Shown one piece after another: positions 1-62,151 of a stretch of 62,572 bases of DNA. The number at the start of each line of letters is the position of its first letter. Position 1 is the first letter of the stretch. Position numbers and translations under genes: made by a program. This stretch comes from a virus (taxonomy: Duplodnaviria; Heunggongvirae; Uroviricota; Caudoviricetes). The stretch is taken from IMG/VR virus record IMGVR_UViG_2671180890_000001; one strand, given 5' to 3'. The notes beneath the pieces were generated by a model. The model was not told the origin of the DNA. It saw only the letters and a program-made list of their open reading frames with translations, and did no database searches.

Positions 1-1745
1 ACTGCAGCAAAAAACAGCCAGGTTGCAGCAGCCCAAAGCGAGAGCGCGGCAGCCGGTTCTGCGACTTCAGCAGCTGGATCAGCAACTGCTGCGGCTAACA
101 GCCAGAAAGCTGCGAAGACGAGTGAAACTAACGCAAAGTCCAGCCAGACGGCAGCGAAGACCAGCGAAACGAATGCCAAAGCCAGTGAAACTGCGGCGAA
201 AAGCAGTCAGGATGCAGCGGCCCAAAGCGAGAGTGCCGCAGCCAGTTCTGCAAGCGCGGCGGCTGCTTCTGCCACTGCATCAGCTAACAGTCAAAAAGCA
301 GCAAAAACCAGTGAAACCAACGCAAAGGTGAGCGAAACAGCGGCTGCGAACTCAGCGAAAGCATCGGCAGCAAGCCAGACGGCAGCTAAAGCAAGCGAAG
401 ATGCAGCCAGAGAGTACGCAAGCCAGGCTGCGGAGCCGTATAAATATGTCTTACAGCCGCTGCCTGATGTGTGGATACCATTTAACGATTCGCTGGATAT
501 GATTACGGGCTTTTCGCCATCATATAAAAAAATTGTTATTGGTGACGATGAAATAACGATGCCTGGCGACAAGATTGTTAAGTTTAAACGTGCATCGAAA
601 GCAACCTATATTAACAAATCTGGTGTGCTGACAGAGGCTGCCATTGACGAGCCACGATTTGAACGTGATGGTCTGCTTATTGAGGGGCAAAGAACAAACT
701 ACATGCTCAATTCGGAAAGCCCTGCCAGTTGGGGGCGATCGTCAAATATGGATGTGCCCGAAACAGGGACGGATAATTTTGGTTTTACCTATGGAAAGTT
801 TGTCTGCAACGATTCTCTGATTGGGCAAACCTCAGCCATTAATATGGCATCAATTGCTGCAACAAAGTCAGTTGATGTCTCAGGCGATAATAAATATGTG
901 ACAACCTCATGTCGTTTTAAAACAGAACTGCAGGTAAGGTTGCGTATCCGGTTTGATAAATATGACGTAGCGCAACAACTTTTCTTGGTGATGCGTATAT
1001 TGATACACAAAACGCTTGAAATTAATATGACAGGCGGTGCTGCCTCAAGGATTACAGCGAGAGTCAGAAAGGACGAAGCTACCGGATGGATTTTTGCAGA
1101 GGCAACAATTCAGGCAATTGATGGGGAGTTAAAAATAGGTTCTCAGATACAGTATTCTCCTAAGCAGGGCGGGCAACCGTATCTGGTGACTATATTTATC
1201 TGGCCACCCCACAAGTAGAAAATGGGCCTTGTGTATCATCTTTTATTATATCAGGAACGACGGCGGCGACCCGCGCAAGCGATATAGTTACAGTTCCCAT
1301 TAAGAATAATTTTTATAATCTTCCTTTTACGGTTCTTTGTGAGGTACATAAGAACTGGTATAAAACGCCAAATGCAGCGCCGCGTGTTTTTGATACCGGC
1401 GGTCATCAAACCGGAGCGGCTATTATTCTTGGCTTCGGTTCTTCAGCAGATTACGACGGATTTCCTTATTGCGATATTGGAGGAGCTAACAGACGGGTAA
1501 ACGAAAACGCATCGCTTGAAAAAATGGTTATGGGATGCGTGTAAAGTCAGATCAGTCTACGTGCTCAGTAAGTAACGGCGTATATCCAGCGAAACAAAAA
1601 CCACATGGTCCTGTATTCAGAACACCGCAATTATCCGTATTGGAGGCCAGACTACAGCCGGGTTACGTCATTTATTTGGTCATGTCAGGAATTTCAGAAT
1701 ATGGCACAAGGCATTGACTGATGCTCAGGTGGGGAGTCAATCTAA
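1..1745 (+). pseudogene. stf: Side tail fibre gene, C-terminal two thirds, fold-back copy broken by homopolymer frameshifts
   Basis: Frame 1 translation matches the 793 aa product of 10583..12964(-) except at GG>G and AAA>AAAA sites near 970-1010 and an indel near 1185. Confidence 0.75.
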
Positions 1746-2026
1746 TGAAAGATTTAACACTCAAATTTGCCGACAGGGCCGACTTTTCGGCCTTTATGGA
1801 GAGTATTGGCTATTATGATGACGAGTCGATGCAGGATGATATTCTTATTGACGTGATAGGTAACGTGTACAAAGAAACCGGAGAACTTACTGAAGATGGC
1901 GAGCCGGTATGTGTTAAGGAAGACGGATATTTTGTAAACGTGCGCATCATTAATGATGCAAAAAAATCGTCAATATTCGATGAATACGTGGTTGCTGTTG
2001 AGCATCAACTTCGTGGCTGGATGTGA
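1745..2026 (+). CDS. Hypothetical acidic 93 aa protein (fold-back copy of 10302..10583)
   Basis: Identical translation to 10302..10583(-). Confidence 0.5.
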   Translation: MKDLTLKFADRADFSAFMESIGYYDDESMQDDILIDVIGNVYKETGELTEDGEPVCVKEDGYFVNVRIINDAKKSSIFDEYVVAVEHQLRGWM

Positions 2027-2035
2027 GGAAGAAAA

Positions 2036-3076
2036 ATGGCTACATCGACAGTAATTCCTGAAGACATCAAAACGCTAAAATCCGACGTTAGCAAATTAAA
2101 AAACGATCAAGGAAGCTACGCAACAAAATCATATGTAGACAGCAAAGATGAAACCGTTGGTGACTGGTCTGCTTCATGGTATCAGCAGGTATTGCCAACT
2201 AGCGGAGCTATATTTGGGAGAAAACTCCGCTCAACTCACCGGACGGCAGGTGTTGAGGATGCGTATTGCGAACTATACCTCAAAAAATGGATAGACAGTC
2301 CAGGTAACGCAATGGCGCGCCTTAACCTGAACGATAACGGGACAAACATTTGCTGGGACTTTACCAACCTTTATGGCGGTACGATGATTTTTCCCGGTGA
2401 CAGCGGATACCTCAAAATGGGTAACTGCCTTATGTCATACAGCAAGCGTGGAAGTAACGCGCTTATTAAATTTGATTACACCGACACATTACAGATCAAA
2501 TATGCCAATCATGGGTCAACCATGACATTAAACACACAGGGAACCGCTTATGCTGGTGTTACTGCTCAATTGTGGGGCAACTCCAGCCGTCCTGTTGTTT
2601 ATGAAGTCGGTGTTGATGGTGGCGCTTATATGTTCTATGCGCAGAAAAATACCGATAACACCTATATGTTAAGCGTTAATGGTGCATGTCATGCCACCGC
2701 ATTTAACCAGCATTCCGACCGGGATCTGAAAGACAACATTCAGGTGATCGATAATGCAACCGACCGCATCCGTAAAATGAACGGCTATACATACACGCTT
2801 AAAGAAAACGGTATGCCCTATGCTGGTGTCATTGCACAGGAAGCTCTGGAAGCAATCCCAGAAGTTGTAGGTTCCGCAGTGAAATATCAGGACGGTGCAA
2901 GCGGATCGGAAGGTGAAGAAGGTGAACGTTATTACACAGTAGATTATTCTGGTATTACTGGCTTGCTTGTTCAGGTAGCCAGAGAGTCAGACGACAGAAT
3001 AACAGCACTGGAAGAAGAAAACGCAGAATTAAAACAAAGATTATCTGCAATTGAGGCGGCGCTTGCGTCTAAATAA
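2036..3076 (+). CDS. Tail fibre or receptor-binding protein with C-terminal S74-type intramolecular chaperone domain (fold-back copy of 9252..10292)
   Basis: Identical 346 aa translation. Confidence 0.65.
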   Translation: MATSTVIPEDIKTLKSDVSKLKNDQGSYATKSYVDSKDETVGDWSASWYQQVLPTSGAIFGRKLRSTHRTAGVEDAYCELYLKKWIDSPGNAMARLNLNDNGTNICWDFTNLYGGTMIFPGDSGYLKMGNCLMSYSKRGSNALIKFDYTDTLQIKYANHGSTMTLNTQGTAYAGVTAQLWGNSSRPVVYEVGVDGGAYMFYAQKNTDNTYMLSVNGACHATAFNQHSDRDLKDNIQVIDNATDRIRKMNGYTYTLKENGMPYAGVIAQEALEAIPEVVGSAVKYQDGASGSEGEEGERYYTVDYSGITGLLVQVARESDDRITALEEENAELKQRLSAIEAALASK

Positions 3077-3103
3077 TATTAAGGGGCCGAGCGCCCCGTT
3101 TTA

Positions 3104-3412
3104 TTGGGTGGGATGAAAATGGATATAACACCTTTCCTTCATGCACTTTGTGCTGTGGCTGCGCAGGTACTGGTTGGTCTTTTTACCGGAAACTGGGCTT
3201 ACGGAGCGATAGCCGGTTGTACGTTCTTCATTGCGCGTGAACACACCCAGGCAGAATATCGCTGGATTGAAATGTTCGGGCATGGCAAGCGGATTAACAT
3301 GCCGTGGTGGGGCGGTTTTGATCCGCGCGTGTGGGATGTGGCAAGCCTGATGGATTTTGCTGTGCCGGTGGTGGCGTGTCTGCTGGTCTGGCTGTTGGTT
3401 TATCGTGGGTGA
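3104..3412 (+). CDS. Small membrane protein (fold-back copy of 8916..9224)
   Basis: Identical 102 aa translation, hydrophobic segments. Confidence 0.45.
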   Translation: MGGMKMDITPFLHALCAVAAQVLVGLFTGNWAYGAIAGCTFFIAREHTQAEYRWIEMFGHGKRINMPWWGGFDPRVWDVASLMDFAVPVVACLLVWLLVYRG

Positions 3413-3574
3413 AAAAAGGTGAGCTGTATATGCAACGGAGGAAGAAACCCCGTTGCTGGAAGCCTGGAAAAAGTATCGGGTGTTGTTGAATCGTGTTGAT
3501 ACATCACTATCTCCAGATATCGAGTGGCCAAGTCAACCATAAATCAATATCCCCTGCAATGCAGGGGATATTTC

Positions 3575-4540
3575 TTAATTATCAGTAGATTGTTCCTCTA
3601 GTAACAACTCAATTCTGCTTAGTATTTCTTTAGATATTTTTCGGCTATCAATTTTTATAGTTACAAAATTACCTTTATATCTAGCCGTGATCCCTTCCCC
3701 ATATTTTTTCTCGTCTTTTGTTTTTTCCTCGTCGCCAACCAGAACAGAGTCAGATAATATTTGTATAATCCGTGAAGCTTCTAAATCCTCGCCGTTTTTT
3801 TTAATTGCCAGAAGATGATGAGCAGCATTGCTCATGGCAGCCATGTTTTTTTTGTAGACCTTAAACAAAGAATCTCCAGCACGAGCTGACAGTTCTCCTG
3901 GATGATTGAAGATAGCTAATATATCTTTTGGTAGACCAGCTGTATTAATACAGCGAGTGATAATATTTCTGTCTATATTTTCAGCCTCGGCTAATGCTTT
4001 AACGTTACCATCAAAGTCATTTAGCTTGCGTAAGTATCTCTTTCCTCTTTCGTATGCACTAATAGGCCTATAATCGTTACCAATTTGGGATAACCAATGC
4101 ATCTGTTCATCGTCGAGATCACCTATTAAGACGCGATAGTCACATCCTGTTAATATCGCTGCTTTTCTTCTACGTGAGCCGTCAGCGACTTCAACGATTC
4201 CAGACACTTTTCTGGCGAAAGCTGGATTTTGTTGTCCAGACGTTAGAAAAGATGGGATTAAATCGGCTAGAGAGGATTCATTTAATAAATCTTGATCGCG
4301 TTCATTACCTAGCCATACCATTGTTGCCATTTCAACTTTATCTGCGGGAATTGTCTCTAACTTAAAGTTAACATTACGTCCGCATACTGGCAAAGTTATG
4401 CTGTTACCGGTTAATGAACTCAGTTGACGTTTTAAATCACCAACCATAGGTGATACGGGCTGATGTTCAGGGGCATGATGATTATTACTCATAATGCGAT
4501 TAATATCTGGAGCATTTTTTAGAAGAGAGCGCTGTTTCAT
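3575..4540 (-). CDS. sopB: SopB/ParB partition protein (fold-back copy)
   Basis: Identical to 7788..8753(+). Confidence 0.85.
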   Translation of the reverse strand: MKQRSLLKNAPDINRIMSNNHHAPEHQPVSPMVGDLKRQLSSLTGNSITLPVCGRNVNFKLETIPADKVEMATMVWLGNERDQDLLNESSLADLIPSFLTSGQQNPAFARKVSGIVEVADGSRRRKAAILTGCDYRVLIGDLDDEQMHWLSQIGNDYRPISAYERGKRYLRKLNDFDGNVKALAEAENIDRNIITRCINTAGLPKDILAIFNHPGELSARAGDSLFKVYKKNMAAMSNAAHHLLAIKKNGEDLEASRIIQILSDSVLVGDEEKTKDEKKYGEGITARYKGNFVTIKIDSRKISKEILSRIELLLEEQSTDN

Positions 4541-5707
4541 TATTCGTTCTCCCAGCGAGGTTTTATTAGATCATCAAAAATTTCTCGGCAAACAGGGTCC
4601 CATATAGAAACAGCATTTCTCCATGCATTCAATGTTGAACGTTGGTTTGCTGCTTGTTCAAATACTGTTCTCATTTTTATCTGGCCTTTACCTACTTCAT
4701 CGGTAACGCGTACAACCTGACGTAATACCATTGATCCCCATGTATTTCTTATTTGTTCTTCCATCCATCGTGATTGATTCCCTGTAGTGAGACTATATTT
4801 AGTCAGAAGTAAGCGAACGGTTGGCTCAAATCCACCTAGGTCAACGCTTTCCAATAGATCGAGAAGCATTGTGAAAAAACTGTAGAACAGAAGCGTAATC
4901 AAATAATTCTGCAGGTGTAGCAACAACAATAACGTCAGCGGCACAAACAACGTTAATGGTTCCTGTACCGAGGTTCGGAGCACTATCTATAACGATAACA
5001 TCGTAGTTATCCCAAACTGATTCAATAGCTGCGCGCAGCATAAGGTGTGGAGGATGAGGCAATTTACCCTGAGCATGATATTGCATGAGATCTGTTTCTA
5101 TACGATGTAAAGCTAGGCAGCTAGGGATAATGTCTAGCCCAGGCCAACATGTTGGCTTTATAGCATATTCAGCGTTATCGCGTTCTCCTAAGTAAAATGG
5201 CAGTAAAGTATCCTCGGCATGGATATGTAAATCAGGAACATAACCGTGATACATAGAGGCCGTGCCTTGAGGATCGTTACCTTCAACCAAAAGAACACGA
5301 TGACCTTGTAATGCTAACCATTGAGCTTGATGTACCGCAGACGATGTTTTATAAACGCCGCCTTTGTGTGACATAACGGCAAGCACAACAGGGTTTTTAT
5401 CTTGTGGTCGTTGGTTTGGGTTGCCAAAAACTGCTCGCATACTGTTGATTTGATCTATGGTATAACCAGCACGACGTTCAATTCTTCCTCTCATTTCAAA
5501 GTCAGGTGCAGGTAAACGCCCGCTCTTCTCAGCATCTCTAATTGCTTGAGGAGTTACACCAATTAAATCTGCTACTTCAGTTATACCCCATCGGCGGGTG
5601 ATACGCCGAGCTTCAGGACTATCATCACCGAATTGAGCGATAGCAATTGCTTGGGTCATTTCTTGACCTCTCGTAACACAATCTTGCAATAACTTTTTCA
5701 AAGACAT
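4540..5707 (-). pseudogene. sopA: SopA/ParA partition ATPase, fold-back copy with a 1-nt homopolymer frameshift (A6 here versus T5 in the primary copy near 7450)
   Basis: ORFs 4841..5707 and 4540..4983 together reproduce the 388 aa SopA of 6622..7788 in two frames. Confidence 0.8.
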
Positions 5708-6143
5708 ACTGTCATCTCCAGCTTGTAACTTTGCTTAATAATTAAATCTTTGCTTATTTCTAGCAAATTTGCATGAAAAAGGCAAAGCAAAACGAAAAAC
5801 GCAAAGGTGAATATTTGAGCTAAATCATCTTTTGTTCCCCTCCCGAAATGCATAAAACGAACAACGATATAATCATAACTAATTGATATTTATTATCTTT
5901 TTTAAAGAAAGGAAATCATGTAAAACTAGGGAAACATGATAAGAATCATCAATGAGATACGTTTTCTCTATTAGTTCTCCCAATCTTACCAATACGAGAA
6001 CATAAACAGAGAACATAAAAATCAAGTAATGATACAAACACAATAAAGAACATAAATAAAGAATTAAAACCAATGCTAAATAAAGCAGTACATAATATGA
6101 GAACATTACACCAAATGAGAACATTAATCAAGAACACAACGAA

Positions 6144-6185
6144 ACATAATTCCCCATTATACGTGCGTATAATGGGGAATTATGT
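6144..6185. repeat. Left hairpin telomere (telL) read-through: 20 bp arms around a non-self-complementary TG centre at 6164-6165
   Basis: ACATAATTCCCCATTATACG-TG-CGTATAATGGGGAATTATGT; arms closely resemble the N15 telO palindrome. Confidence 0.85.
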
Positions 6186-18458: not shown

Positions 18459-18463
18459 GGGAT

Positions 18464-19491: not shown

Positions 19492-22049
19492 CGTCCACCT
19501 CCGGAGAACAGACCACCATCGCGCATCTGTGCCTGGATTTCATCACGGGCACCCTTGCGGGCCATGTCATACACCGCCTTCATCATCTGTGGACCTGGCA
19601 GACCATTCGTACCGTCGTTCTGAATCACCACGTTGTTGTTCTGCTCAAACCTGATACCCTCTGAACGCCGCATTTGCGCCGGACTTCCGGTGCCACCGAC
19701 ATAACCGCCGGTGGCATAGCCGCGCATCAGCCGGTAGAGATTTCCCACGCCAATCCGGCTGGTTGCCTCCTTCGTGAAGACAAATTCACCACGGTGAACA
19801 ATCCCCGCTGGCTCATATTTGCCGCCGGTTCCCGTAAATCCTCCGGTCGCAAAATGGAATTTCGCCGCAGCAGCCTGAATGGCTGTACCGCCTGACGCTG
19901 ATGCGCCACCACCGGCAGCACCGCCAATGGCGCTGCCGATACTCCCGACAATTCCCACCATTGCCTGCTTAAGCAGAATTTCTGTCATCATGGACAGCAC
20001 GGAACGGGTGAAGCTGCGCCAGTTCTGTTCACTGCCGGTCAGCATCGCCGCCATATTTTGCGCAATACCATCAAAGGTCTGCGTGGCAGCACTTTTAACC
20101 TGCGACATACTGTCCGTGGCGCTCTCTTCCCACTCACTCCAGCCTGACTTGAGGCCTGCCATCCAGCTCCCGCGAAGCTGGTCTTCAGCTGCCCAGGTCT
20201 TTTTCTGCTCTGACATGACGTTATTCAGCGCCAGCGGATTATCGCCATACTGCTCCTTCAGACGCTGTTCCGTGGCTTCCCGCGCTGCCTGCCGGTCAGT
20301 CAGCCCCCGGCTTTTCGCATCAATGGCGGCCCGTTTTGCCCGTTGCTGCTGTGCAAATTTATCCGCCTGCTGCGCCAGCGCGTTCAGGTGCTCCTGATAC
20401 GTAACCTTGTCGCCAAGTGCAGCCAGCTGGCGTTTGTACTCCAGCGTCTCATCTTTATGCGCCAGCAGGGATTTCTCCTGTGCAGACAGCTGGCGACGTT
20501 GTGCGGCCTCCTCCAGTACCGCGAACTGACTTTCTGCCTTCCACAAATCCCGGCGCTGCTGGCTGATTTTCTCATTCGCTCCGGCATGCTTCTCCAGCGT
20601 CCGGAGTTCTGCCTGAAGCGTCAGAAGGGCAGCATGAGCACTGTCTTCCTGACGATCGCCCGCAGACACCTTCACGCCGGACTGTTTCGGCTTTTTCAGC
20701 GTCGCTTCATAATCCTTTTTCGCCGCCGCCATCAGCGTGTTGTAATCTGCCTGCAGGATTTTCCCGTCCTTCAGTGCCTTGTTCAGTTCTTCCTGACGGG
20801 CGGTATATTTCTCCAGCGGCGTCTGCAGGCGTTCGTAAGCCTTCTGCGCCTCTTCGGTATATTTCAGCCGTGACGCTTCGGTATCGCTCTGCTGCTGCGC
20901 ATTTTTGTCCTGTTGAGTCTGCTGCTCAGCCTTCTTTCGGGCGGCTTCAAGCGCAAGACGGGCCTTTTCACGATCATCCCAGTAACGCGCCCGCGCTTCA
21001 TCGTTAACAAAATAATCATCCTTGCGCAGATTCCAGATGTCGTCTGCTTTCTTAAACGCAGCCTCTGCCTTAATCAGCATCTCCTGCGCGGTATCAGGAC
21101 GACCAATATCCAGCACCGCATCCCACATGGATTTGAATGCCCGCGCTGTCCTCTCTGCCCAGGTCTCCAGCGTGCCCATGTTCTCTTTCAGGCGGCGGGT
21201 CTGGTCATCAAACCCTTTCGTTGCGGCCTCGTTCGCCGCCTGCAATGCTCCGGCTTCATCGCCGGAACGCTGCAACTGAGCAACATACGCAATCTGCTCC
21301 GCCGTCACGTTATGGAACTGGCGTGCCATCGCCGTCAGCCCCGACGTCGGGTCTGTGGTCAGCTTCCCGAAGGCTTCAGCGACCTTGTCCACCTCCACGC
21401 CGGATACAGAGGAGAAACGCGCCACACTCTGGCTGATGGACGCAATCTGAGCCTCACCGCTTACCCCCGCCTTGACCAGTGCGCTGAGTGACTCGCTGGT
21501 CTGGTTAAACGTCAGCCCTGCCGCCTGCCCGGCTCTGGACAGGACCAGCATACGATCTGCCGTCAGTCCCGCCTGATTGCCGGAAAGGACCAGCGTTTTG
21601 TTGAAATCGGACAGGGTTGAGTTGCCCTGATACCAGGCATACGCCAGCGCACCGGTCGCCACCGCCAGCGAGGTGGCCCCCACCATCGGCAGGGTGATCG
21701 CACCGGCAAGCCCCCGGAACATGGGGATCATCCCGCCGAAGGAGTCCTTAACCTGACCCCCCTGTTGCAGCAGGATCAGCCACGGACTTTGCCCGCCTGC
21801 AAGCTGCGTGGCCACGTCGGTGAACTGTGCAGGCAGCATACGCATGGCGGCTTTATACTGCCCGACGGAAATCCCCGCTTTCTGTGCAGCCAGCGCCTGT
21901 CGGCTCAGCGACTGTTCAACGACTGCCGCTGTTTTTTTCGCATCACTTTCCGTACCGGAAAAATGACGCCTGACTCTGGCCATCTGCTCGTCAAATCTGG
22001 CCGCATCCAGACTCAAATCAACGACCAGATCGCCTACCGGTTCAGCCAT
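19488..22049 (-). CDS. H: Tail tape measure protein H
   Basis: 853 aa, same length as lambda H. Confidence 0.95.
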   Translation of the reverse strand: MAEPVGDLVVDLSLDAARFDEQMARVRRHFSGTESDAKKTAAVVEQSLSRQALAAQKAGISVGQYKAAMRMLPAQFTDVATQLAGGQSPWLILLQQGGQVKDSFGGMIPMFRGLAGAITLPMVGATSLAVATGALAYAWYQGNSTLSDFNKTLVLSGNQAGLTADRMLVLSRAGQAAGLTFNQTSESLSALVKAGVSGEAQIASISQSVARFSSVSGVEVDKVAEAFGKLTTDPTSGLTAMARQFHNVTAEQIAYVAQLQRSGDEAGALQAANEAATKGFDDQTRRLKENMGTLETWAERTARAFKSMWDAVLDIGRPDTAQEMLIKAEAAFKKADDIWNLRKDDYFVNDEARARYWDDREKARLALEAARKKAEQQTQQDKNAQQQSDTEASRLKYTEEAQKAYERLQTPLEKYTARQEELNKALKDGKILQADYNTLMAAAKKDYEATLKKPKQSGVKVSAGDRQEDSAHAALLTLQAELRTLEKHAGANEKISQQRRDLWKAESQFAVLEEAAQRRQLSAQEKSLLAHKDETLEYKRQLAALGDKVTYQEHLNALAQQADKFAQQQRAKRAAIDAKSRGLTDRQAAREATEQRLKEQYGDNPLALNNVMSEQKKTWAAEDQLRGSWMAGLKSGWSEWEESATDSMSQVKSAATQTFDGIAQNMAAMLTGSEQNWRSFTRSVLSMMTEILLKQAMVGIVGSIGSAIGGAAGGGASASGGTAIQAAAAKFHFATGGFTGTGGKYEPAGIVHRGEFVFTKEATSRIGVGNLYRLMRGYATGGYVGGTGSPAQMRRSEGIRFEQNNNVVIQNDGTNGLPGPQMMKAVYDMARKGARDEIQAQMRDGGLFSGGGR

Positions 22050-23643: not shown

Positions 23644-24039
23644 TCACATTTCATAGGTAATGACATAAGTCAGATCGGCTGAACTCCACAGGCCCGCATC
23701 ATCGTCGCGCCGGTAGTCATAGCCGCTGGCCACCATACTGGTGATCAAATCTGACAGTGCCGGGATATCGCTCATCACCGGATAAATCCGGGACTCCATC
23801 CACGCATCCAGCTCTGAATCCGGCACCTGAGCAGGCAGGAAAACTTCGATATGCAGCTCCGCCTGCCAGGTATCGCTGTCCAGCTCTTCGCCCGTGTATT
23901 CAGCGCCGGTGAGATAAACGGCAACTGCCGGAAAATCCGCCTCATCAAAAACAGCGGGGCGACCATCAAAAAGCGTCGCCCCGGTGTCATGCTTCTCCAG
24001 TGCATCCAGTACGGCTGCACGGAGTTCAGTATGTTTCAT
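23644..24039 (-). CDS. U: Tail terminator protein U
   Basis: 131 aa, lambda U-like. Confidence 0.9.
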
Positions 24040-24613
24040 CGCTTTATTACCATTCTCAGTTGATGCTGCAGCGCATAGCCCAGCTCTTTCGGAAGACGTT
24101 CACGCCGTATCCGCTCAATATTCTGTTTAAACGCCGTGGTCAGCGGCACCGCCATCGGGATTTTCACCACATCAATGGGGTAACGGTTTTTCCCGGCCAC
24201 ACGCTGCATGACATGCCACCGGCCATTTTTCAGTTGCTGAATAAACGCGCCGGGAATACGACGGTTTCCCACCACAAGCACGCTACCGCCACCTTTCAGG
24301 GATGAACGCTGCCCCTTTTTACGACGCCTGCGGCGGGACAGGACAACCCGCGCATTCCCCAGCTTGATTACGGGCAAATCCCCCGGTTAACCTTGATTCT
24401 GGCCTGCGGATTTTTGACCGTGGCCCTTTTCAGCCTGGCCCTTTCCTTTACCAGTTTCCGGCGTACCTTTGTCTCACGGGCAACCTGTGCCGCCGACTGC
24501 GATATCGCGGATGAAGCAACGCGGTTAATGGCCATTGCGGCGGCACCGGGCACCGCCGTTCTGCTGATACGGCTGAGGTTTTCAACGGCCTGCTCAAGAC
24601 CTTTTATGGCCAT
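24036..24613 (-). pseudogene. Z: Tail completion protein Z split by a 1-nt frameshift in a G-run near 24375 (probable consensus error)
   Basis: ORFs 24368..24613 and 24036..24377 together match lambda Z (192 aa) in two frames. Confidence 0.75.
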
Positions 24614-24624
24614 ACATCCCCCTT

Positions 24625-24978
24625 TCAGCGGCGACGGTTAACGGCAGGCGGTACGCCCCGCCCAAGCCAGAGATGACAGCTTCCGCCATCATCCGGCGAA
24701 ATCCGGTCTATCCAGAAGTTTTCCTCACCGATGGTCAGCGTGTCGCCGCGCCGCAGCTGCCGCACATCATCAGTCCGGACAAACAGGAACGGGCTGGAGC
24801 CTTCAACGCGCACGCCCTGTCCGGCATAGCTGATATTTTCAGGATCATCAAAAACACCACGTATCACAGCACCGGACTGCTCACCGGATGTCATGGTGGC
24901 TGACGTTCCCATGTACCCGCGTATCGTTTCATCGGCGCGGGCAATGGCAGCATCGAACAGGTTATCGAAATCAGCCAC
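24625..24978 (-). CDS. FII: Head-tail joining protein FII
   Basis: 117 aa, lambda FII-like. Confidence 0.9.
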   Translation of the reverse strand: MADFDNLFDAAIARADETIRGYMGTSATMTSGEQSGAVIRGVFDDPENISYAGQGVRVEGSSPFLFVRTDDVRQLRRGDTLTIGEENFWIDRISPDDGGSCHLWLGRGVPPAVNRRR

Positions 24979-24989
24979 AGCGCCTCCCG

Positions 24990-25385
24990 TTATTGCATTC
25001 TGGCCAGGCCGCGCTCTGTCATTTCAGCTGCCACACCGGCAGAGACACGGAACGCCGTTCCCGGCAGCACAAATGCCACAGGCTCATCCCGCGTGGCGTG
25101 AAGTGCATCAGTATGCAGCGTCACCAGTGCCACAACCGTGACCAGATCAGCCGTATCAGTCACGGTATCCGGCTGCGCTGATACAACCTCATTTTCATGT
25201 CCGGTCAGCGCATTTTCCGGGCTGACAGATGTGTCCTGACCAGCAGCGTCATCCGTGTCATCAAGCTCCTCTTCCAGCTCTGCCACACGGAGTGCCAGTT
25301 CTTCTTTCGTCCCCGTCAGGCTGACATCACGGTTCAGTTGCTCACCCAGCACCTGAAGACGGGCAATCAGTTCATCTTTCGTCAT
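24990..25385 (-). CDS. FI: DNA packaging protein FI
   Basis: Lambda FI-like from MTKDELIARL. Confidence 0.85.
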   Translation of the reverse strand: MTKDELIARLQVLGEQLNRDVSLTGTKEELALRVAELEEELDDTDDAAGQDTSVSPENALTGHENEVVSAQPDTVTDTADLVTVVALVTLHTDALHATRDEPVAFVLPGTAFRVSAGVAAEMTERGLARMQ

Positions 25386-25426
25386 GGACTCCTCCACAGA
25401 GAGAAAATGGCCCCGAAGGGCCATGA

Positions 25427-26452
25427 TTACGCCAGTTGTACGGACACGAACGCATCAGGGTCAGCCAGCAGCATCAGCGGTGCTGACTGAATCATGGTGA
25501 ACTCACGCGCCGGATCGCCGGTGGTCACCCAGTTTTTCGGGTAGCGGGCAGAGGCGTTAATACCTTCGCGCTGTGCGTCCGCATCCTGAATGCAGCCATA
25601 GGTGCGCAGACCGCGTGCCTGAGTGTTCCCCAGCACCATCGTGTTGTCCGGCAGGAAGTTCTTTTTGACGTCGTTTTCCACGTACTGTCCGGAATACACG
25701 ACGATCGCCGTATCGCCATACATCCCCTTATAGGACACCGCTTCGCCCAGGTCTTTTACCGCTGTCTCCAGCTCGGAATTAGAGCCGCGACGGGTATCCA
25801 GCTTCTCCTTGACGGCTTTGAAGGAACGGAACAGCGCCCAGCCTTTCGGATCAAACACGATGATATTCACCACACCGCTGGCGTTCAGCGCGTAGGCTTC
25901 GATATCGTCGGTCGGGTCATACGTGGACTTGTCACGCTTGCTCCACTCCGTACCGCCGGACTGCGTGATGTTGTTCGCCACACTGCGGCCCATATCCACT
26001 TCAACCGGATCGAAGGCTTCACCGGTCATGGTATATTTGCCCTTAAGCACGGCAGAAACGGCCTGCATCTCTTCGACCTGAGCAATGGCCAGCTCTTCGT
26101 CTCGCATGTTCTGCAGAATGATGCGACGGCGGCGGTAAGCCGGGTCCGCCAGATTCTGTGGATCTTCATCCGGCAGGCGACGCAGGGTCATCTGCGGATT
26201 CACCTCATGCTTCGGCTTGACATATCCCGGTGTAAATTCAGAGGTGGAGCCGCCACGGGAGCGGATAACCTCACCGGAAACAATCGGCGAAACGTACAGC
26301 GCCATGTTTACCAGTCCCGGAATTTGTGAGAGATAGACTTTCTCCGTGGTGAAGGGATAGCTCTCACGGAAAAAGAGACGCAGAAACAGCGGATCAAACT
26401 TAAATTTCTTCTCATTTGCCGCCAGCAGCTGGGCGGTTGTGTACATCGACAT
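25427..26452 (-). CDS. E: Major capsid protein E
   Basis: Lambda E-like from MSMYTTAQLLAANE. Confidence 0.95.
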   Translation of the reverse strand: MSMYTTAQLLAANEKKFKFDPLFLRLFFRESYPFTTEKVYLSQIPGLVNMALYVSPIVSGEVIRSRGGSTSEFTPGYVKPKHEVNPQMTLRRLPDEDPQNLADPAYRRRRIILQNMRDEELAIAQVEEMQAVSAVLKGKYTMTGEAFDPVEVDMGRSVANNITQSGGTEWSKRDKSTYDPTDDIEAYALNASGVVNIIVFDPKGWALFRSFKAVKEKLDTRRGSNSELETAVKDLGEAVSYKGMYGDTAIVVYSGQYVENDVKKNFLPDNTMVLGNTQARGLRTYGCIQDADAQREGINASARYPKNWVTTGDPAREFTMIQSAPLMLLADPDAFVSVQLA

Positions 26453-26507
26453 AAAAAAATCCCGTAAAAAAAGCCGCACAGGCGGCCTTTAGTGATGAAG
26501 GGTAAGG

Positions 26508-26840
26508 TTAAACGATGCTGATTGCCGTTCCGGCAAACGCGGTCCGTTTTTTCGTCTCGTCGCTGGCAGCCTCCGGCCAGAGCACATCCTCATAACGGAA
26601 CGTGCCGGACTTGTAGAACGTCAGCGTGGTGCTGGTCTGGTCAGCAGCAACCGCCAGAATGCCAACGGCAGCACCGTCGGTGGTGCCATCCCACACAACC
26701 AGCTTACGGGTGGAGGTGTCCAGCATCAGCGGGGTCATTGCAGGCGCTTTCGCACTCAATCCGCCGGGCGCGGTTGCCGTATGTGCCGGGTCACTGTTGC
26801 CCAGCGGCTGGTAATGGGTAAAGGTTTCTTTGCTCGTCAT
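26508..26840 (-). CDS. D: Head decoration protein D
   Basis: Lambda D-like from [12 protein letters not shown]. Confidence 0.9.
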
Positions 26841-26849
26841 AAACATCCC

Positions 26850-28149
26850 TTACACTGGTGTGTTCAGCAAATCGTTAACGGCATCAGATGCCGGGTTACC
26901 TGCAGCCAGCGGTGCCGGTGCCCCCTGCATCAGACGATCCAGCGCAGTGTCACTGCGCGCCTGTGCACTCTGTGGTGCTGCGGCCAGAATACGGCGGGCC
27001 GTTTCCACGGTCATACCGGGGGTTTCGGCCAGCACGCATGCCTGTTCTTCGCGTCCGTGAGCCTCCTCACAGTTGAGGATCCCCATAATGCGACTGTTTT
27101 CTGCCGCAACCGCTGCGGTGATCTGCGCGTTCACGTCCGGCTGCGCAGCGCTGGCGTTCTCGCCCTCCGTCGCTGGCACCACGCCAGTAACGTCAGCCTG
27201 CGAAGCAGTGGCTGAAACAGTTGTTGATTGAGTCTCTTTGGTCATTCGCCCTCCTGAGAGACGGGATTTACGTGCATCCAGTGCATCACGCATGACGGTG
27301 ATCGCATCGGTACTGTTCACAAGTTCATCAGCCAGTCCGGCATCAATGGCCTCCTGACCGCTGTACACTGCAGCCTCGGTATCCAGCACAGCCTGCACGG
27401 ACAGGCCGGTATATGCCGACACCTTCTGTGCAAACATCCGGCGGGTTGCATCCATCCGGGACTGCAGTGTTTCCCGGACATCATCCGGTAGATGGCTGTA
27501 GGGGTTGCCATCCACCTTATGGCTGCCGCTGTAAATCAGCGTGATTTCCACGCCCTGTTTCTCCAGCGCAGCGCCGTAATTACTGTGAGCCATCATGACG
27601 CCGATGGAGCCTGTCCGGGCGGTCTGCGTGACCAGACGCCGGGAGGCGGCGCTGGCAAGCAGCTGACCTGCACTGCAGTTCATGTCGTTGGCCAGCGCCC
27701 ATACCGGCTTTATGTCACGCACACGGGCGATGATGTCAGCACAGTCAAATGCTCCCGCCACCATCCCGCCCGGTGTGTCCATATCGAGCAGAATGCCGTC
27801 CACCATCGGATCGCTGGCAGCCTGTTGCAGACGAGCGATAATGCCGTTGTAACCGGTCATTCCCGAATACGGCTGCAGCGCCCGCGTCCGGCTGACCAGC
27901 GTACCGGACACCGGCAGCACGGCGATGCCGTTCATGACCTGATAACTGCGGGCCTGTCGTGGTCCGTCATCATCACCGGATAACGCCAGCGCCGCTGGTG
28001 CCTCTCCGGCAGTCAGGCTGTCGCCGGATACTGCATCCGTCAGGCGACTGATCCCAAGCTGGCCTGCAAGCGCACAAAAGAAAACCCGCGCATAGGCGGG
28101 TTCAAGCATCAGCGGCTCATTAAAAGCCATGCTGGCAATATGCGGGAGA

Positions 28150-28169
<20 letters not shown>
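26850..28169 (-). CDS. C: Head protease / scaffold C, with in-frame Nu3
   Basis: Lambda C-like from (V)TAELRNLPHIASMAF; ORF track extends upstream into B. Confidence 0.9.
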
Positions 28170-31850
<3,681 letters not shown>

Positions 31851-54525: not shown

Positions 54526-54567
54526 ACATAATTCCCCATTATACGCACGTATAATGGGGAATTATGT
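54526..54567. repeat. Right hairpin telomere (telR) read-through: same 20 bp arms around a CA centre at 54546-54547
   Basis: ACATAATTCCCCATTATACG-CA-CGTATAATGGGGAATTATGT. Confidence 0.85.
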
Positions 54568-54737
54568 GCTGATTTTCAGAACAAAGTCAAGGAACAAATT
54601 TTAACGTTCCGATATTGTGTTTTTATTTATTATCCGTTGTTGTGTTCTGTTAGTTTGTGCCTAAGTTAACGCGTTATTAGTTATCTTATTCTCAAATTGT
54701 GTTACGATAATCCGAGCGGATAATCAGGAGAGGAAAG

Positions 54738-56633
54738 ATGAGCAAAGTAAAAATCGGTGAATTAATAAACTCACTTGTTAGCGATGTTGAGTCAATAGAT
54801 AACTCTGACCGTCCTCAAGGGGAGAAAACAAAAAAAATAAAGGCTGTTGCATTAAAATTTAAAAATGCATTATTTAATGACAAGCGAAAGTTTAGGGGGA
54901 AAGGATTAGAAAAAAGAATTACAGCCAACACATTCAATGCCTATATGAGCAGGGCCAGAAAACGGTTTGATGATAAACTTCATCATAGCTTTGAAAAAAA
55001 TATACATCGCCTATCTGAAAAGTATCCTTTATATAATGAGGAGCTATTGTCATGGCTTTCTCTACCTGCTGCCGATATTCGCCAGAGAATGTCAGCTTTA
55101 CAGGCAAAATTAAAATTAATTCTCCCTCTATCAGAAGATTTATCTAATATCAGAATTGGCGATAACAAAAGTCATAATAAGTTATTGAAATTATCAAATA
55201 AATATAAAGAGTGGCAATTCGCCATTTCTGATTTAACTAGCGATAACTGGAAAGATAAGCGCGATTATTTATATAAATTACTACAGCAAGGATCTGCCTT
55301 ACTTGAGGAGTTGAATCAGCTAAAAGTTAACCATGAGATTCTCTATCATCTTCAACTAAGCCCTGCCGAACGTGCATCTATCCAGCAACGATGGGCGGAC
55401 GTTCTGCACAATAAGAAACGTAACGTGGTGGTCATTGATTACCCTAAATATATGCAAGCTATTTACGATATTATAAATAGCCCTGCTACATTAAATAATC
55501 TAAACACTCGTTCAGGTATGGCTCCTTTGGCATTTGCACTTGCTGCATTGTCAGGAAGACGAATGATTGAGATTATGTATCAAGGTACATTTACTGTTTC
55601 TGGTAAGTATACCGTTGATTTTTTAGGCCAAGCTAAAAAAAGAACTTCTGATGATATAACCAGAAAAATATATACATTATGCGAAGCAAAAACATTTGTT
55701 TATTTAATAAATGTACTTCGCTCATGCCCAGCAGCATCTGATTTTGATGATGTCGTTAAAGGTTATGGAGATAACGACACACGCTCTGAAAACGGACGTA
55801 TTAATGCCATATTAGCAAAGGCTTTTAACCCGTGGGTTAAATCATTTTTCAAAGATGACCGCCGTGTTTATAAAGATAGTCGTGCTATTTATGCCCGTAT
55901 TGCGTATGAAATGTTTTTCCGCGTAGATCCTCGTTGGAAAAACGTAGATGAAGATGTTTTCTTTATGGAAATTTTAGGCCATGACGATGAAAACACTCAA
56001 TTACACTATAAGCAATTCAAGCTGGCCAACTTCTCAAAGACATGGAGGCCAAATACTGGAAACGAAAATACCAGGCTGGAAGCATTGCAGCAGCTTGATG
56101 ACGAAATGCCTGGATTCGCCAGAGGAGATGCCGGGGTTCGTCTGCATAACACAGTTAAGCAGCTGGTAGAGCAGGACCCCTCTATAAAAATCACGAACAG
56201 CACTCTAAGAGCGTTCAAATTTAGCCCAACAATGATTAGTCGATACCTGGAATTTGCTGCTGATGCTCTGGGGCAATTTGTTGGCGAAAACGGACAATGG
56301 CAACTGAAAATAGATACTCCAGAAATCGTTATGCCTGACGAAGAAGAACTGGAAGCAATACCTGAACTGGCGGATGAATTATCAGAGGATGACGATCTGG
56401 ATGACGACGAAATTGAGATAGAGGAAGAGGAAGAGGAAGATAGCGTAGAAGAACAGCAACCGCCTGCACCTTCTTCGCCTGTATCTAAGCCGGTATTTAA
56501 GCCGGTGAGAAATATTGGTGATGGCTCATACGTTGTTGAGTTTCATTATAATGGCCAGAATTATGCGTGGTCCGGCAGTGCAAACAGCCCCATGTCAGCA
56601 ATGCAGTTAGCATGGCTGACATATTTCGGTTAA
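54738..56633 (+). CDS. telN: Protelomerase TelN (fold-back copy)
   Basis: Identical 631 aa translation. Confidence 0.85.
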   Translation: MSKVKIGELINSLVSDVESIDNSDRPQGEKTKKIKAVALKFKNALFNDKRKFRGKGLEKRITANTFNAYMSRARKRFDDKLHHSFEKNIHRLSEKYPLYNEELLSWLSLPAADIRQRMSALQAKLKLILPLSEDLSNIRIGDNKSHNKLLKLSNKYKEWQFAISDLTSDNWKDKRDYLYKLLQQGSALLEELNQLKVNHEILYHLQLSPAERASIQQRWADVLHNKKRNVVVIDYPKYMQAIYDIINSPATLNNLNTRSGMAPLAFALAALSGRRMIEIMYQGTFTVSGKYTVDFLGQAKKRTSDDITRKIYTLCEAKTFVYLINVLRSCPAASDFDDVVKGYGDNDTRSENGRINAILAKAFNPWVKSFFKDDRRVYKDSRAIYARIAYEMFFRVDPRWKNVDEDVFFMEILGHDDENTQLHYKQFKLANFSKTWRPNTGNENTRLEALQQLDDEMPGFARGDAGVRLHNTVKQLVEQDPSIKITNSTLRAFKFSPTMISRYLEFAADALGQFVGENGQWQLKIDTPEIVMPDEEELEAIPELADELSEDDDLDDDEIEIEEEEEEDSVEEQQPPAPSSPVSKPVFKPVRNIGDGSYVVEFHYNGQNYAWSGSANSPMSAMQLAWLTYFG

Positions 56634-56804
56634 AGCATACAGTAAAGGCACCGAATTAACGGTGCCTTGTTGTGTGACCTACCTCGCCTGCCCCCTGCAA
56701 AGGGCAGAAGTAACGGAGGAAACGCGGCTGCAACCACAGACATCACCGCCCCGACTGCGAGGCTTCCCTTCTCTAAGAAGGGCATAAATTCGGGCTGGTC
56801 AACC

Positions 56805-57587
56805 CTATTTATTGGTGATTTCTGCTGGCTTTAGCTGCGCGGATAACTGCTCAAGTTTTTGAACTGCCAGTTCAAAATGCGCGGGTAACGCCTTTTCCAG
56901 ATCAGAGTTAATATCGGTGATGGGTAAATCACCACACGACATACTCCGCCTACCCCCACGAACAACATCACGCAACAACTCTCGTTCATACGTGCGCATG
57001 TTCCCCAATGCCGACTCAGCAGCCGTCAAAATCCGGCGCAGTTCTGCCGTAATTGCTGGCAAATCATCAACCGTTATGGGGTTCGGGGATGGATTACGAC
57101 ACGCCCGACGCAAAGCTAACCATACACCGCTAATCCAGGCATTTCGGTACTGAAAACTTTGTGCTATATCGTTAATCAGCCCTCGCAGATACTCTTTCTG
57201 CCTCCAGTTCAACGGCTCCGCTGCTCGCATTGGCTCAGGCTCGATGTAAACGTACTCTCCATTTTTGCGAATAGAGGGCAAGACTTCGTTCGTTACCCAT
57301 TTGCGAAACCGCCAAGCTGTTGTGCCTTGCTTCACCGCGTCACGGCAGCGGAGGATCAGGGTGTATAGACCTGACTCTGAAATAATATTTAGCTTTTGCT
57401 CTCCGCCAGGGGTGTAACTTAAAGTTACACCCTTTTCATCCTCATCCAGAGACATTAGCGCCTTCCGGGAATTAACGAGTCTTAAAGCATCACATACATC
57501 CTTAGCCACAAACCACGGCTCACCGTTAATCATCACTACACGAACCTGATGCTCTTCCTGAAAGGAAAAGACTGCTAACGCGCTCAT
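56805..57587 (-). CDS. Bro-N antirepressor (fold-back copy)
   Basis: Identical 260 aa translation. Confidence 0.7.
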   Translation of the reverse strand: MSALAVFSFQEEHQVRVVMINGEPWFVAKDVCDALRLVNSRKALMSLDEDEKGVTLSYTPGGEQKLNIISESGLYTLILRCRDAVKQGTTAWRFRKWVTNEVLPSIRKNGEYVYIEPEPMRAAEPLNWRQKEYLRGLINDIAQSFQYRNAWISGVWLALRRACRNPSPNPITVDDLPAITAELRRILTAAESALGNMRTYERELLRDVVRGGRRSMSCGDLPITDINSDLEKALPAHFELAVQKLEQLSAQLKPAEITNK

Positions 57588-57817
57588 TCAGCCTCCTTAT
57601 CGCGCAGCAAGTGCGACGAGAGAGACGCAGAATATCCCTGTGCTTCATGCGTTAACTCACACGCAATCTGCAGAAGTTTTCCAGCCTCTGAGAGGTAAAT
57701 CGACGCCTCACAACTGGAGACTGTCCGATGGGCTGATGATACGAGCGCATAGACCTGAGCCAGACGTTCATCCAACGATTCCAGCAGGCCAACAGTGTTC
57801 ATTTTTACCTGATTCAT
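57584..57817 (-). CDS. Hypothetical 77 aa protein (fold-back copy of 51276..51509)
   Basis: Identical translation. Confidence 0.45.
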   Translation of the reverse strand: MNQVKMNTVGLLESLDERLAQVYALVSSAHRTVSSCEASIYLSEAGKLLQIACELTHEAQGYSASLSSHLLRDKEAE

Positions 57818-58357
57818 GCAGCCACCTCGCGCACCGGAATACGGGCAGACAATACCAGGACAAACCGGCTGGCGAACTGGCGACGAGCTTCCCGTTCAGA
57901 TGACGCGATAGTGGAAAGATGATGAATGTGGGACTTTTTGTCTGTGCGAACGACTGCCGCAAATTTGAATTTGAACATGGTATGCACTCCGTTTTATTGG
58001 TCGTGCTACCACCAGAGTTGCGAATCTCTTTATTGGTGGTAGCCCAGGCGGGGTTCGCAATACCGGTAAACGAAGAAACCGGCCCGACCGAAGTCAGCCC
58101 CACCTGAGCCACCATAATTCGGATATGCGCAGGTCTATACACACAAAAAAACACGCTGGCGCGTGTTGTGCGCTTCGTTTTGCCAGGATTGCGAAGTCCC
58201 GACTGCGGATTTACCGCAGCGAGGTGACTTTACCTCCAAAACGACGCACACGTCAATAATTTGCAAAGACATTTTACCCCGTGACCAGTCACGGGGACAG
58301 GTGTTTTTATAGTTTGCTTGAACAAACGATCAGAACATGAACAATGTTATTGTTCCG

Positions 58358-59170
58358 TTATAAGAAAGCCTCACGCGAACGGAACACCCACTCTAGCTGT
58401 ACTGGATAAATTTCTCCCGTTTTAATATTTATTAGGCGCGCGGCTAATAACTCACCCATAAAAACCTGAGTTTTATGGCTCATATCTGACGGGTTAAAAA
58501 TAGTAGGTGATGTTATATCAATATGATTACTGCTTAACCCATTTATCTTTGCTAAATATTCAATTCTAAGGTCTTTTACATTAACATCTTTTGGTATTTG
58601 TCCTTTTATATCAATATCTGCCCATATTGTTTCAGGGTTCCCTTCATTTATTTGTGTACTACCAAAGATAATTTCGGCACCTAAAGTATTTAACACTTCT
58701 ACATCAGCAGATATTCCAAAAGCATTAGCACCAACATAGCTTCCATGCTTTGTTATTTCAGAGGAATCGACATGAAAACCATACCATCCAGACATATCTC
58801 GAGATGTTATCACGCTATCACTACCGCTATTCTCAACAAAATCACGGTTAAGATATGTTCCTGAGTATGTGATACTTCTAGGGATAGACAAACCTTGAGA
58901 TGTTAAAACGTTGTTGTATGGCGCGTATGTTAATGAGTGAACGACATATCCACGCCATGAACCATCATCTATCTTTGATGCAATAATTCTATTAAATTCC
59001 TTACCTGTGAGTATTTTGCTGCTAAAATCACCAACAGAGTTGATAGGTACTCTTTTTTCTTTTTCGAATTTATACTCAACGTCCGTTGATGCCTTATTAT
59101 CATATTGATAAGTGCATCCAGATAATAACAAGATAGAGAGTAATAAAGCTGTTGTTTTTTTGTTACGCAT
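58358..59170 (-). CDS. Moron lipoprotein (fold-back copy)
   Basis: Identical 270 aa translation. Confidence 0.55.
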   Translation of the reverse strand: MRNKKTTALLLSILLLSGCTYQYDNKASTDVEYKFEKEKRVPINSVGDFSSKILTGKEFNRIIASKIDDGSWRGYVVHSLTYAPYNNVLTSQGLSIPRSITYSGTYLNRDFVENSGSDSVITSRDMSGWYGFHVDSSEITKHGSYVGANAFGISADVEVLNTLGAEIIFGSTQINEGNPETIWADIDIKGQIPKDVNVKDLRIEYLAKINGLSSNHIDITSPTIFNPSDMSHKTQVFMGELLAARLINIKTGEIYPVQLEWVFRSREAFL

Positions 59171-59259
59171 AATATTAACTTAACCTATTTGATTAATAAT
59201 ATGTTATTCCATTAAATAAAATATGCCGAGAACGGTTTAACTTGAACAGTCATCACTAT

Positions 59260-59667
59260 TCAATCAACTTTTTTAGCATCAGCCATACGCTTCAACCAGT
59301 AATCAACAATCGGCTGCTCATCCACAGAATGTTTACCAGGTATAACTCGCCAGCTATCTTGCGAAAATCTGCCGTACTTACGCGGGAATAGGCCTTTCTT
59401 TATCTCCCGCCATGTACTAGGAAAACCATCCACAAAAGTACCAATTAACAGGAGAGGGACAAAAATCAGAGCTACAAACCATCGTGCAAGAAAGTGTTCA
59501 ACAACAACATTTTCACCGTTGTAGTAATACGCATACGCATCCAATATGCGAATTTTCCTTACCTTAAAAATAGCCTTATGTTGAGAACGACTTAACTTGA
59601 TACGAATGTATCCCTTATCCAAAGGGGATTCGTATTTGTATGATTGAACAGCCATTTTTAACCCCAC
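59260..59667 (-). CDS. Hypothetical membrane protein (fold-back copy of 49425..49832)
   Basis: Identical translation. Confidence 0.45.
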   Translation of the reverse strand: MGLKMAVQSYKYESPLDKGYIRIKLSRSQHKAIFKVRKIRILDAYAYYYNGENVVVEHFLARWFVALIFVPLLLIGTFVDGFPSTWREIKKGLFPRKYGRFSQDSWRVIPGKHSVDEQPIVDYWLKRMADAKKVD

Positions 59668-59984
59668 TCACCATCAGCAAACAAAGCGTTATACTCTGAC
59701 AATGGTAGACGGTTGCCCTCGATGTAGAGATTCAGTTCATACTTCGTCTCCGGGTTTTCCTTGTCGGCTCGTTCCCAACGCTCAGCAGCCTCACGCGCCA
59801 ATAATTCCACTGCTTTCAGATAATCCTCCGTACGGAACCAGCCAAAGATAAGGCCACGATCTGTTACAGCCCAGGCAACCTTTTTTTCTTCCTCCTGGAT
59901 AGCCTTAATGCGTCGATCGCATTCATCCCGGCAAAACTGCAGCTGACGGTAATCAAGTTTGTCCAAAAATGCAGTAGTAGACAT
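59658..59984 (-). CDS. Hypothetical protein (fold-back copy of 49108..49434)
   Basis: Identical translation. Confidence 0.45.
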   Translation of the reverse strand: MSTTAFLDKLDYRQLQFCRDECDRRIKAIQEEEKKVAWAVTDRGLIFGWFRTEDYLKAVELLAREAAERWERADKENPETKYELNLYIEGNRLPLSEYNALFADGEWG

Positions 59985-60172
59985 ATTTTTACTCCCCGTT
60001 CACCGAAAAATCACGATAGAAACGTTTCCACATACGATAAGTCTGCGCGAGTTGTTCACCACGAAACATCGCCTTCCTGGCCTTCATGTTTTCCTTGTGA
60101 GACTTTCGATCTATGAACCAAAACCATTGCTGGAACACACAAAGCAAGAGACACAAAGATAATATCCACTGA

Positions 60173-62151
60173 TTACCCATAGAAAGCGCCCTGCTCTTCG
60201 TAGCTGCATGGGCTATTCCCGGTAATGTATTCACGTAACCGCCGCAGTTCATTGCTGGATAAGTGATCCATGAACTCTGTGAGGTACAGAGATGCAAACG
60301 TCATAGCTATGCTAGCTGATGACCATGATGACATAGTGGCCAGCTCCTCACCGGAAAGCGCACTCATCGCCCAGGACTCAGGTACAACCACTGGCAACAC
60401 AGCCAAAGCCTCAGAAATTACTGAATGAGGGGCGTTTTGAACCTGCTCGTTTGTGGATCGCGTTTTATCATCCATATATATATTGAGATCCAAATCGCGA
60501 TCCATTTCGATGGCAGTCTTCTCGGCTTTACGCGTTTTCAGGGTTAGGCCATCTTTCTGACGCTGAGCAAGAATATCCAGCATAAATGCCGCTGATTCAG
60601 GCTCAACAAAACGCAAGGTTGGACGCTTATCGCCGTCTCTGCCGCGACGTTTACCTGTTTTAAGGCCAAGAGAGTCGCAAATGTTTTTAAACAACGCTTC
60701 CGGCACTTTAGGCTTCCCTTTTGGCGTCATAAAACCACCAATGTGCAGAACGTTATTCAACAGGTCACGGCGTTCGGCTGTCATGAGGTTATCTCGAGCA
60801 AATTTGAGACGCTCCTGAGTCGCCTCGCCGGTCATAGTCTCAGGGTTGATACCGCAGTCGATAAAGTACTGCCGGAGAGTTGCTGATTTAAGCGCATAGA
60901 AACCGCGCGCCCCGACTTCAACAGTAGGAGTAGCTTTTACCTTGTAGTCGATTATTCCAGGGAATTTAGTTTTAAAGACATCATCAGCCTGCTCGCGAGT
61001 CATTGCGGTCACTACAAAATATTGCCACTGTCCCGCCTGACGGTATGCGTAGGTAAAATTGATGGCTGCTTCTTCCCGGTCGTAACGACGAGCTGTTACC
61101 TCATCTAAAAGCATTGTTTCATAGCGGCGAACTTTGTCTCGAGCACCATCGAAATAGAATTTCAGCGTGCCTTCTTCAACCGGTAGTTTCAGTTCGTTCT
61201 CAATATCCCAGCGGACAAGTTTTGCCTGTTCTTCAAGCGTCAGCGCGCGTTTTTTAGCAGTTCTTCACGCTCTGATTCTTGTGGAGTTTCTGTATTGAGA
61301 TGCAGATCCAGTGTCTGTTCCCACACAATATCCCGCGCTTCTTTACGCAGATCTTTACCGATATCATTTGCAGCATAATCGGTGGCCAGCGGCGATATCT
61401 TATAACCGTCGCTGTGCATGATGCAGATCATGTTGCTGGCGTAGTCGTTACGTGCAGACGCTTCAATTGCGGCTGCTTTAATTTTCATCCTGGTAAAGTC
61501 GGTATTGGCCACCCCCATTGATATACGGTCGCCATCGAAAACGACATCCGTCAGTTCACCGTTCATACCTGCAGTAGCAAGCAATGCCTGGGCGAATGCT
61601 CGTTCTATTTTTTGCGGGTCAGTTTCACGTTTTGCACGAGCTTTATCAAAGCCGATAATAAATTCTTTTGCTGTACGGTCGCGGCGTAGCATTTGCACTG
61701 CGTCGCTGGGTACAACTTCACCACAGAACATGCCGAAATGACGGTCAAAATGTTTTTGCTCAATCGACACGCCGGATGAAATAGACGGGCTATAAATCAG
61801 GCCGTCGTATTTTTTGACCATCTTTTTCGGTTGATTGGTAAATGCTTCAACTTCTGGCTCTGGTTTGTTTTTCTGGTTTACACACAGAAATTTCTTACCA
61901 GGAAAATGCATTCTCAGGGTGGCTGTCACATCTTCTGCAAAGGTGGAGCTGTCGGTGGCCAACATGATTTTTTCGCCATCCGATACAGCTTTCACCACCT
62001 CGGTCATGATGCGATCTTTTTCTGTATAAAAAACCCGGATTGGCTCACCTGTTTCGCGGTTGCGAACATCAACAGGTAATTCAATTACGTGGATCTGCAG
62101 CCATGCCGGTAAACCTAGTTCTTCACGGCGTTTCATAGCCAGTTCAGCCAG
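60173..62151 (-). pseudogene. repA: repA 3' two thirds, fold-back copy, frameshifted (T6 here versus A7 in the primary copy near 47838) and truncated at the chimeric junction
   Basis: ORFs 60173..61114 and 61240..62136 match RepA residues from about 673 onward in two frames. Confidence 0.75.

Follow-up and report, generated by a model that had tools for sequence, protein, structure and literature searches.

In the prophage-like sequence deposited as plasmid pG749_3, the tail gene Z is divided between two open reading frames at a G run that is one base shorter than in related phages. The question is whether the phage has really lost this gene or whether the frameshift arose when the sequence was determined. 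The whole stretch of DNA analysed here (62,572 nt, referred to as the window) is identical, by exact string identity, to GenBank CP014491.1 (62,572 nt) rotated by 421 nt, the window position being the record position minus 421. CP014491 is plasmid pG749_3 of the E. coli ST131-H22 strain G749, which was sequenced by PacBio RSII P6-C4, assembled with HGAP3 and polished with Quiver; short-read polishing is not described (PMC4933990). The source paper treats the replicon simply as plasmid pG749_3, and neither 'N15' nor 'phage-like' occurs in its text (PMC4933990).

The split Z gene

The two open reading frames had been taken in the first-pass annotation for the two halves of lambda Z. The domain search bears this out, since the two products cover adjoining parts of the Pfam Minor_tail_Z model (positions 1-76 and 79-190; Table 1). 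When one G is added to the run, a protein of 192 aa is obtained which matches PF06763 Minor_tail_Z over the complete model (1-190/190, E=9e-82, 273.9 bits at a cut-off of 23.9 bits). The run had also been described as G5 where the frame calls for G6, and this is what the alignments show: G6 is present in lambda (NC_001416), in Escherichia phage PhiR46_1 and in every top E. coli match, and one isolated 1-nt gap separates the window from these sequences. The Z region spans 902 nt in the records of the relatives vs 901 nt in the window. The deletion had been placed near 24375, within 24360-24390; the interval was right, but the run itself lies about 5 nt from the proposed point, at 24380-24384.

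The genetic neighbourhood of Z is that of lambda. The minus strand between 22.4 and 32.4 kb carries morphogenesis genes in lambda order (Nu1, A, W, B, C/Nu3, D, E, FI, FII, Z, U, V, G, T, H), and the order around Z is conserved in comparison with the lambda annotation, with FII upstream and U directly downstream, followed by V, G, T and H. The restored protein is like lambda gpZ (PF06763, UniProt P03731) in its FII-Z-U-V-G-T-H position, in the 4-nt overlap of its gene with U and in its length of 192 aa, and differs from it in 2 residues (K18R and S42A). Unlike the lambda gene, the deposited gene lacks one G of the G6 run and falls into two ORFs of 81 and 113 aa, which is almost certainly an artefact.

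K18R and S42A are common alleles, and the restored Z carries no private substitution; the exact 192-aa sequence is present in 17-23 public contigs. An exact look-up of the 81-aa truncated product in public data returned no record, and G5 on the Z haplotype of the window thus has no independent support there. The FII protein is common to more than 9,000 blocks, and Z was intact in 10/10 places among the matches listed.

Table 1 Features of the Z locus and of the replicon (positions refer to the window)
Feature	Position	Strand	Description
Whole Z gene (tail completion protein)	24036..24613	-	192 aa once one G is restored
5' Z fragment	24368..24613	-	81 aa, ending in KVNRGICP*; Pfam Minor_tail_Z 1-76/190, E=2e-28
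3' Z fragment	24036..24377	-	113 aa, TTG start, MPVIKLGNARVV..., one base out of frame; Pfam Minor_tail_Z 79-190/190, E=2e-47
Homopolymer run, site of the apparent 1-nt deletion	24380..24384	-	Plus-strand C5, i.e. coding-strand G5; G6 in relatives
FII (head-tail joining), upstream neighbour of Z	24625..24978	-	Intact
U (tail terminator), downstream neighbour of Z	23644..24039	-	Intact; 4-nt overlap with the end of Z, as in lambda
Protelomerase	52460-54355	-	631 aa; Pfam TelK_N, TelK_muzzle, ResT-TelK_cat, TelK_stirrup
Non-redundant genome	6165..54546		Putative 48,382-bp N15-like linear plasmid prophage between two hairpin-telomere centres; delimited by palindrome centres
Outer left fold-back copy	1..6164		Reverse complement of 6165-12331, apparently read round the left hairpin; 7 single-base indels; ParA and Stf broken
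Outer right fold-back copy	54547..62151, then the first 421 nt of the record (62152-62572)		2 + 4 single-base indels

Nature of the replicon

Both ends of the window are duplicated as inverted copies of 6.6 kb and 7.6 kb (window 1-12331 and 46940-62572). Near-perfect inverted repeats, their arms 2 nt apart, have their centres at 6164/6165 and 54546/54547, and both palindrome centres lie in the motif CCCCATTATACG-NN-CGTATAATGGGG, which is shared with the annotated telL and telR of PhiR46_1. N15, PY54 and phiKO2 are telomere phages of the N15 family, whose prophages are linear plasmids. Like this family, the window has a protelomerase, partition genes of the SopA/SopB type and lambda-like structural genes; a plasmid maintenance module (ParA/ParB-SopAB and a RepA-type primase) is found together with lambda-like virion genes. 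It is unlike the family in the deposited size of 62,572 bp, which apparently results from both hairpins having been read through.

The closest phage record is Escherichia phage PhiR46_1 (PV340565.1), in which telL/telR, ParA/ParB, a 1,331-aa primase and cI are annotated. Its tel repeat CCATTATACG..CGTATAATGG is found at both palindrome centres of the window, although the tel centre is the symmetric CGCGCG in PhiR46_1 and the asymmetric CGCACG in the window. The protelomerase of the window is 98.6% identical to the PhiR46_1 protein adjoining telL, and 58 of the 61 PhiR46_1 proteins can be aligned with the non-redundant genome in one frame over >90% of their length. Judged from these sequence features, the 62,572-nt record probably represents a 48,382-bp linear plasmid prophage with both hairpins read through and not a circular 62.6-kb plasmid, and its fold-back arms would have arisen from the assembler reading round real hairpin telomeres. 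By coordinate arithmetic, a 48,339-nt contig of another assembly appears to correspond to window 6186-54524, leaving out about 21-22 nt next to each palindrome centre. Since the deposited contig folds back and the 48,339-nt contig appears to stop near both palindrome centres, the molecule is probably linear with covalently closed ends. The 62151/62152 junction was also considered as a collapsed 'dumbbell' circle; this was ruled out, the junction being the end-to-start join of the record rotated by 421 nt.

The left telomere turn (6155-6174) reads TATACGTGCGTATA and the right turn (54537-54556) reads TATACGCACGTATA. A short-read-type junction contig from SRR8871715, in which the right flank is joined to the left (its positions 12836-12880), also reads TATACGCACGTATA; it could be a k-mer graph artefact owing to the palindrome of about 42 nt that is common to both ends. 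With an asymmetric 6-bp spacer, the hairpin sequences would reveal the polarity of protelomerase cleavage. They fit cleavage at the 5' edge of the spacer under several assumptions, the PacBio read being taken as the complement of a single physical strand.

Two small intergenic indels distinguish the window from PhiR46_1, A8 vs GAGAAAAA at 33425-33432 and a compensating pair of 1-nt indels at 36268-36279. The former is a real divergence from PhiR46_1, since DABNDR010000016.1, which covers 14036-34613, is identical to the window there.

Distribution of errors in the contig

The first-pass annotation based its suspicion of a consensus error on the fold-back arms, which were said to show the same type of error as the Z run. 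Errors of this type are indeed present: the outer and inner copies differ by 13 single-base indels and by no substitution over 14,190 aligned positions, nearly all of the indels being changes of homopolymer length. All 13 (13/13) are errors in the redundant outer copies, and in 8 of the 13 one G is missing from a plus-strand G run, even from runs as short as 1-3 nt. The last 421 nt of the window (62152-62572) belong to the outer left copy. False frameshifts were found in the outer copies of the ParA gene (4874-4878), the Stf gene (about 966-1730) and the primase gene (61252-61255), and the inner copies of all three are intact.

Every indel site is settled in favour of the inner copy by a second assembly. 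The telomere-junction contig of SRR8871715 is 100% identical to the inner copy over 12,867 nt (41701-54567) and aligns without gaps with a further 2,729 nt of it (6144-8872), differing only at two central telomere bases, whereas its alignments with the outer copies are gapped. The inner-copy Stf (791 aa), which spans the other ten indel sites, is exactly shared with a 20-50-kb contig. As the errors are confined to the outer copies and eight of them are plus-strand G losses, these data suggest that the outer copies were polished from few reads of essentially one orientation (fold-back subreads).

As an argument about Z, however, the indels of the fold-back arms are weaker than had been stated, since all of them lie in the outer copies, whereas the inner copy, with which Z is contiguous, has no further errors. 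Among the 61 PhiR46_1 genes tested, only Z is frameshifted in the inner copy. Sixty-two homopolymers of at least 6 nt, including five C6 and one G7, lie inside inner-copy CDSs that are still in frame, and no other frame-breaking error was detectable across about 41 kb of coding sequence. With the inner copy so clean and 13/13 demonstrable errors outside it, an error at the Z run is a rare event for the inner part of the assembly. Single-base deletions in homopolymers are the typical residual error of PacBio CLR assemblies polished with Quiver only. The Z run resembles these errors in the loss of one base from a G/C homopolymer and in the lack of substitutions; it departs from the usual Quiver-only picture in that it lies in the well-covered single-copy part, where there are no other frame-breaking errors. 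On the window alone, the choice between an error and a real mutation would be close to even.

The same phage clone in other assemblies

The contig DABNDR010000016.1 (NCBI GCA_014081925.1) aligns with window 14036-34613 over 20,579 nt; the alignment is free of mismatches, and its one gap is an extra G at 24380-24385. Similarly, the Logan contig SRR8871715_190 aligns with window 23975-28942 over 4,969 nt with 0 mismatches and 1 gap, the G of the Z run. A further SRR8871715 contig is 100% identical to the window across 4,891 nt. Together with the junction contig described above, the SRR8871715 comparison amounts to about 25 kb with 0 substitutions, the extra G at the Z run being the only indel. 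The clone-level DNA comparison covers about 36 kb of the 48.4-kb genome, with 8873-14035 and 34614-41700 (about 25%) outside it; within these 36 kb there are no substitutions and, apart from the Z run, no indels. Stf and J are nevertheless shared exactly at the protein level.

All other public relatives are only about 96-99% identical to the window, the nearest of them about 98-99%. In view of this divergence, the complete lack of substitutions indicates that GCA_014081925.1 and SRR8871715 carry the same phage clone. Another candidate for a sister assembly, MOLB01000075.1 (62,607 nt), was rejected as a different phage with >100 substitutions over 8.4 kb. Both comparison datasets are probably short-read data, as can be seen from the k-mer-type fragmentation of the contigs and from the perfect identity; raw long reads in a k-mer assembler could not give 100%. 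The difference at Z is a pure change of run length, with flanks identical to those in the other assemblies of the clone, which are probably of high accuracy. A single uninterrupted Z frame of about 192 codons is missing from the deposited sequence and present in the other assemblies of the same phage clone, and its interruption in the window is therefore put down to a sequence error.

These results lead us to conclude that the Z frameshift is very probably a consensus (base-calling or polishing) error and that Z of the real phage is intact, the reading which the first-pass annotation had also thought most likely. The conclusion follows from a run shorter than in all relatives, from G6 in the assemblies of the same clone and from errors of the same kind elsewhere in the contig; the PacBio-only platform and the absence of decay in the restored Z also favour it. 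It stands despite the weakness of the fold-back argument because the data from the same clone are independent of it. The G6 homopolymer of Z would have been under-called as G5 in the PacBio RSII consensus made with HGAP3 and Quiver only (pG749_3, CP014491), and the real phage would produce an intact 192-aa gpZ tail completion protein. We infer that G749's own DNA contains G6.

Other explanations of the G5 run

The main alternative is that G5 is real and arose by a very recent slippage private to the G749 isolate or to its laboratory stock, gpZ being cut at residue 81. We consider this unlikely. It would agree with the inner copy, in which about 41 kb of CDS and 62 long homopolymers are otherwise free of frame-breaking errors, and a plasmid prophage can be maintained without its tail genes. 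Moreover, SRR8871715 and GCA_014081925.1 may come from an isolate other than G749. On the other hand, the run is G6 in the otherwise identical copies of the phage (0 substitutions over 20.6 kb and about 25 kb), Z shows no further sign of decay, and the assembly is PacBio-only with G-run deletion errors elsewhere.

The G5 run is not restricted to pG749_3 and may therefore be a true slippage hotspot. The G6-to-G5 change in Z was found in eight other public sequences among the matches listed, on at least 5 Z haplotypes, and some of the G5 copies are identical to G6 copies except for the run. The same G5 is present in the STEC chromosomes CP028112, CP027587 and CP031355, in each of which a 'frameshifted' phage tail protein is annotated. 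In IMG/VR contigs, G5 was found in 5 among the matches listed vs at least 120 with G6. A megablast comparison of 60-nt G5 and G6 queries gave 3/446, a rough frequency only, as the search is biased by its 28-nt seed requirement. The Z run is thus a hotspot at which sequencing error, real slippage or both recur. The recurrence of G5 fits a site-specific error as well as a slippage hotspot and does not help to decide how G5 arose in the window; the eight other sequences may carry the same long-read artefact and not real prophage decay, which weakens them as support for a private mutation.

The recurrence of G5 on independent haplotypes would also be compatible with a mixed G5/G6 population, i.e. 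slippage resembling phase variation, or with -1 ribosomal slippage on the G run yielding full-length gpZ; translation would return to the Z frame by a -1 shift after the GGG codon. Both are highly improbable. With 5-6 G, the run is short for phase variation. CGG-GGG-A does not conform to the canonical slippery heptamer X XXY YYZ, and none of the relatives uses such a frameshift, a single frame encoding Z in at least 120 sampled copies as well as in the top E. coli matches. Programmed frameshifting or a functional split gene was rejected, the canonical slippery heptamer being absent and Z being split in no relative.

Implications for annotation and for the biology of the prophage

Should G5 nevertheless be real in G749, which has only a small chance of being so, slippage at the recurrent G6 hotspot would only just have cost a resident N15-like plasmid prophage its tail completion gene. 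The infectivity of the virions had been predicted to depend on this protein, in agreement with the behaviour of lambda: without gpZ its particles are normal in appearance and yet mostly non-infectious (PMC11099176), and the same would be expected here. With G5 on at least 5 public haplotypes, a change at the Z run would then be the step with which the domestication of lambdoid prophages preferentially begins.

Several plasmid records seem to share the fold-back structure of CP014491. CP088810.1 in PLSDB (81,175 nt, 'circular') has this fold-back artefact too, with two inverted copies of the telomere resolvase gene at 15343-17250 and 17633-19540 and two inverted SopA/ParB sets. The Z-region query also had 2-3 matching places in several further E. 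coli plasmid records (75-92 kb), which may be fold-back records as well. In comparative studies, such records can make replicons look larger and richer in genes than they are and can add apparent inverted duplications. The mis-sized deposit of a hairpin phage-plasmid, the asymmetric tel spacer and the fold-back records in PLSDB are of known kinds and mildly useful for curation.

A known gene with an artefactual frameshift is not a novel finding; its biological significance is small and its value is practical. In the annotation of pG749_3 (CP014491), Z should be given as intact or flagged as a probable sequencing error, and it should not be used as evidence of a defective prophage. Equal suspicion is due to the 'frameshifted' pseudogene calls at the same G6 run in at least three STEC chromosomes.
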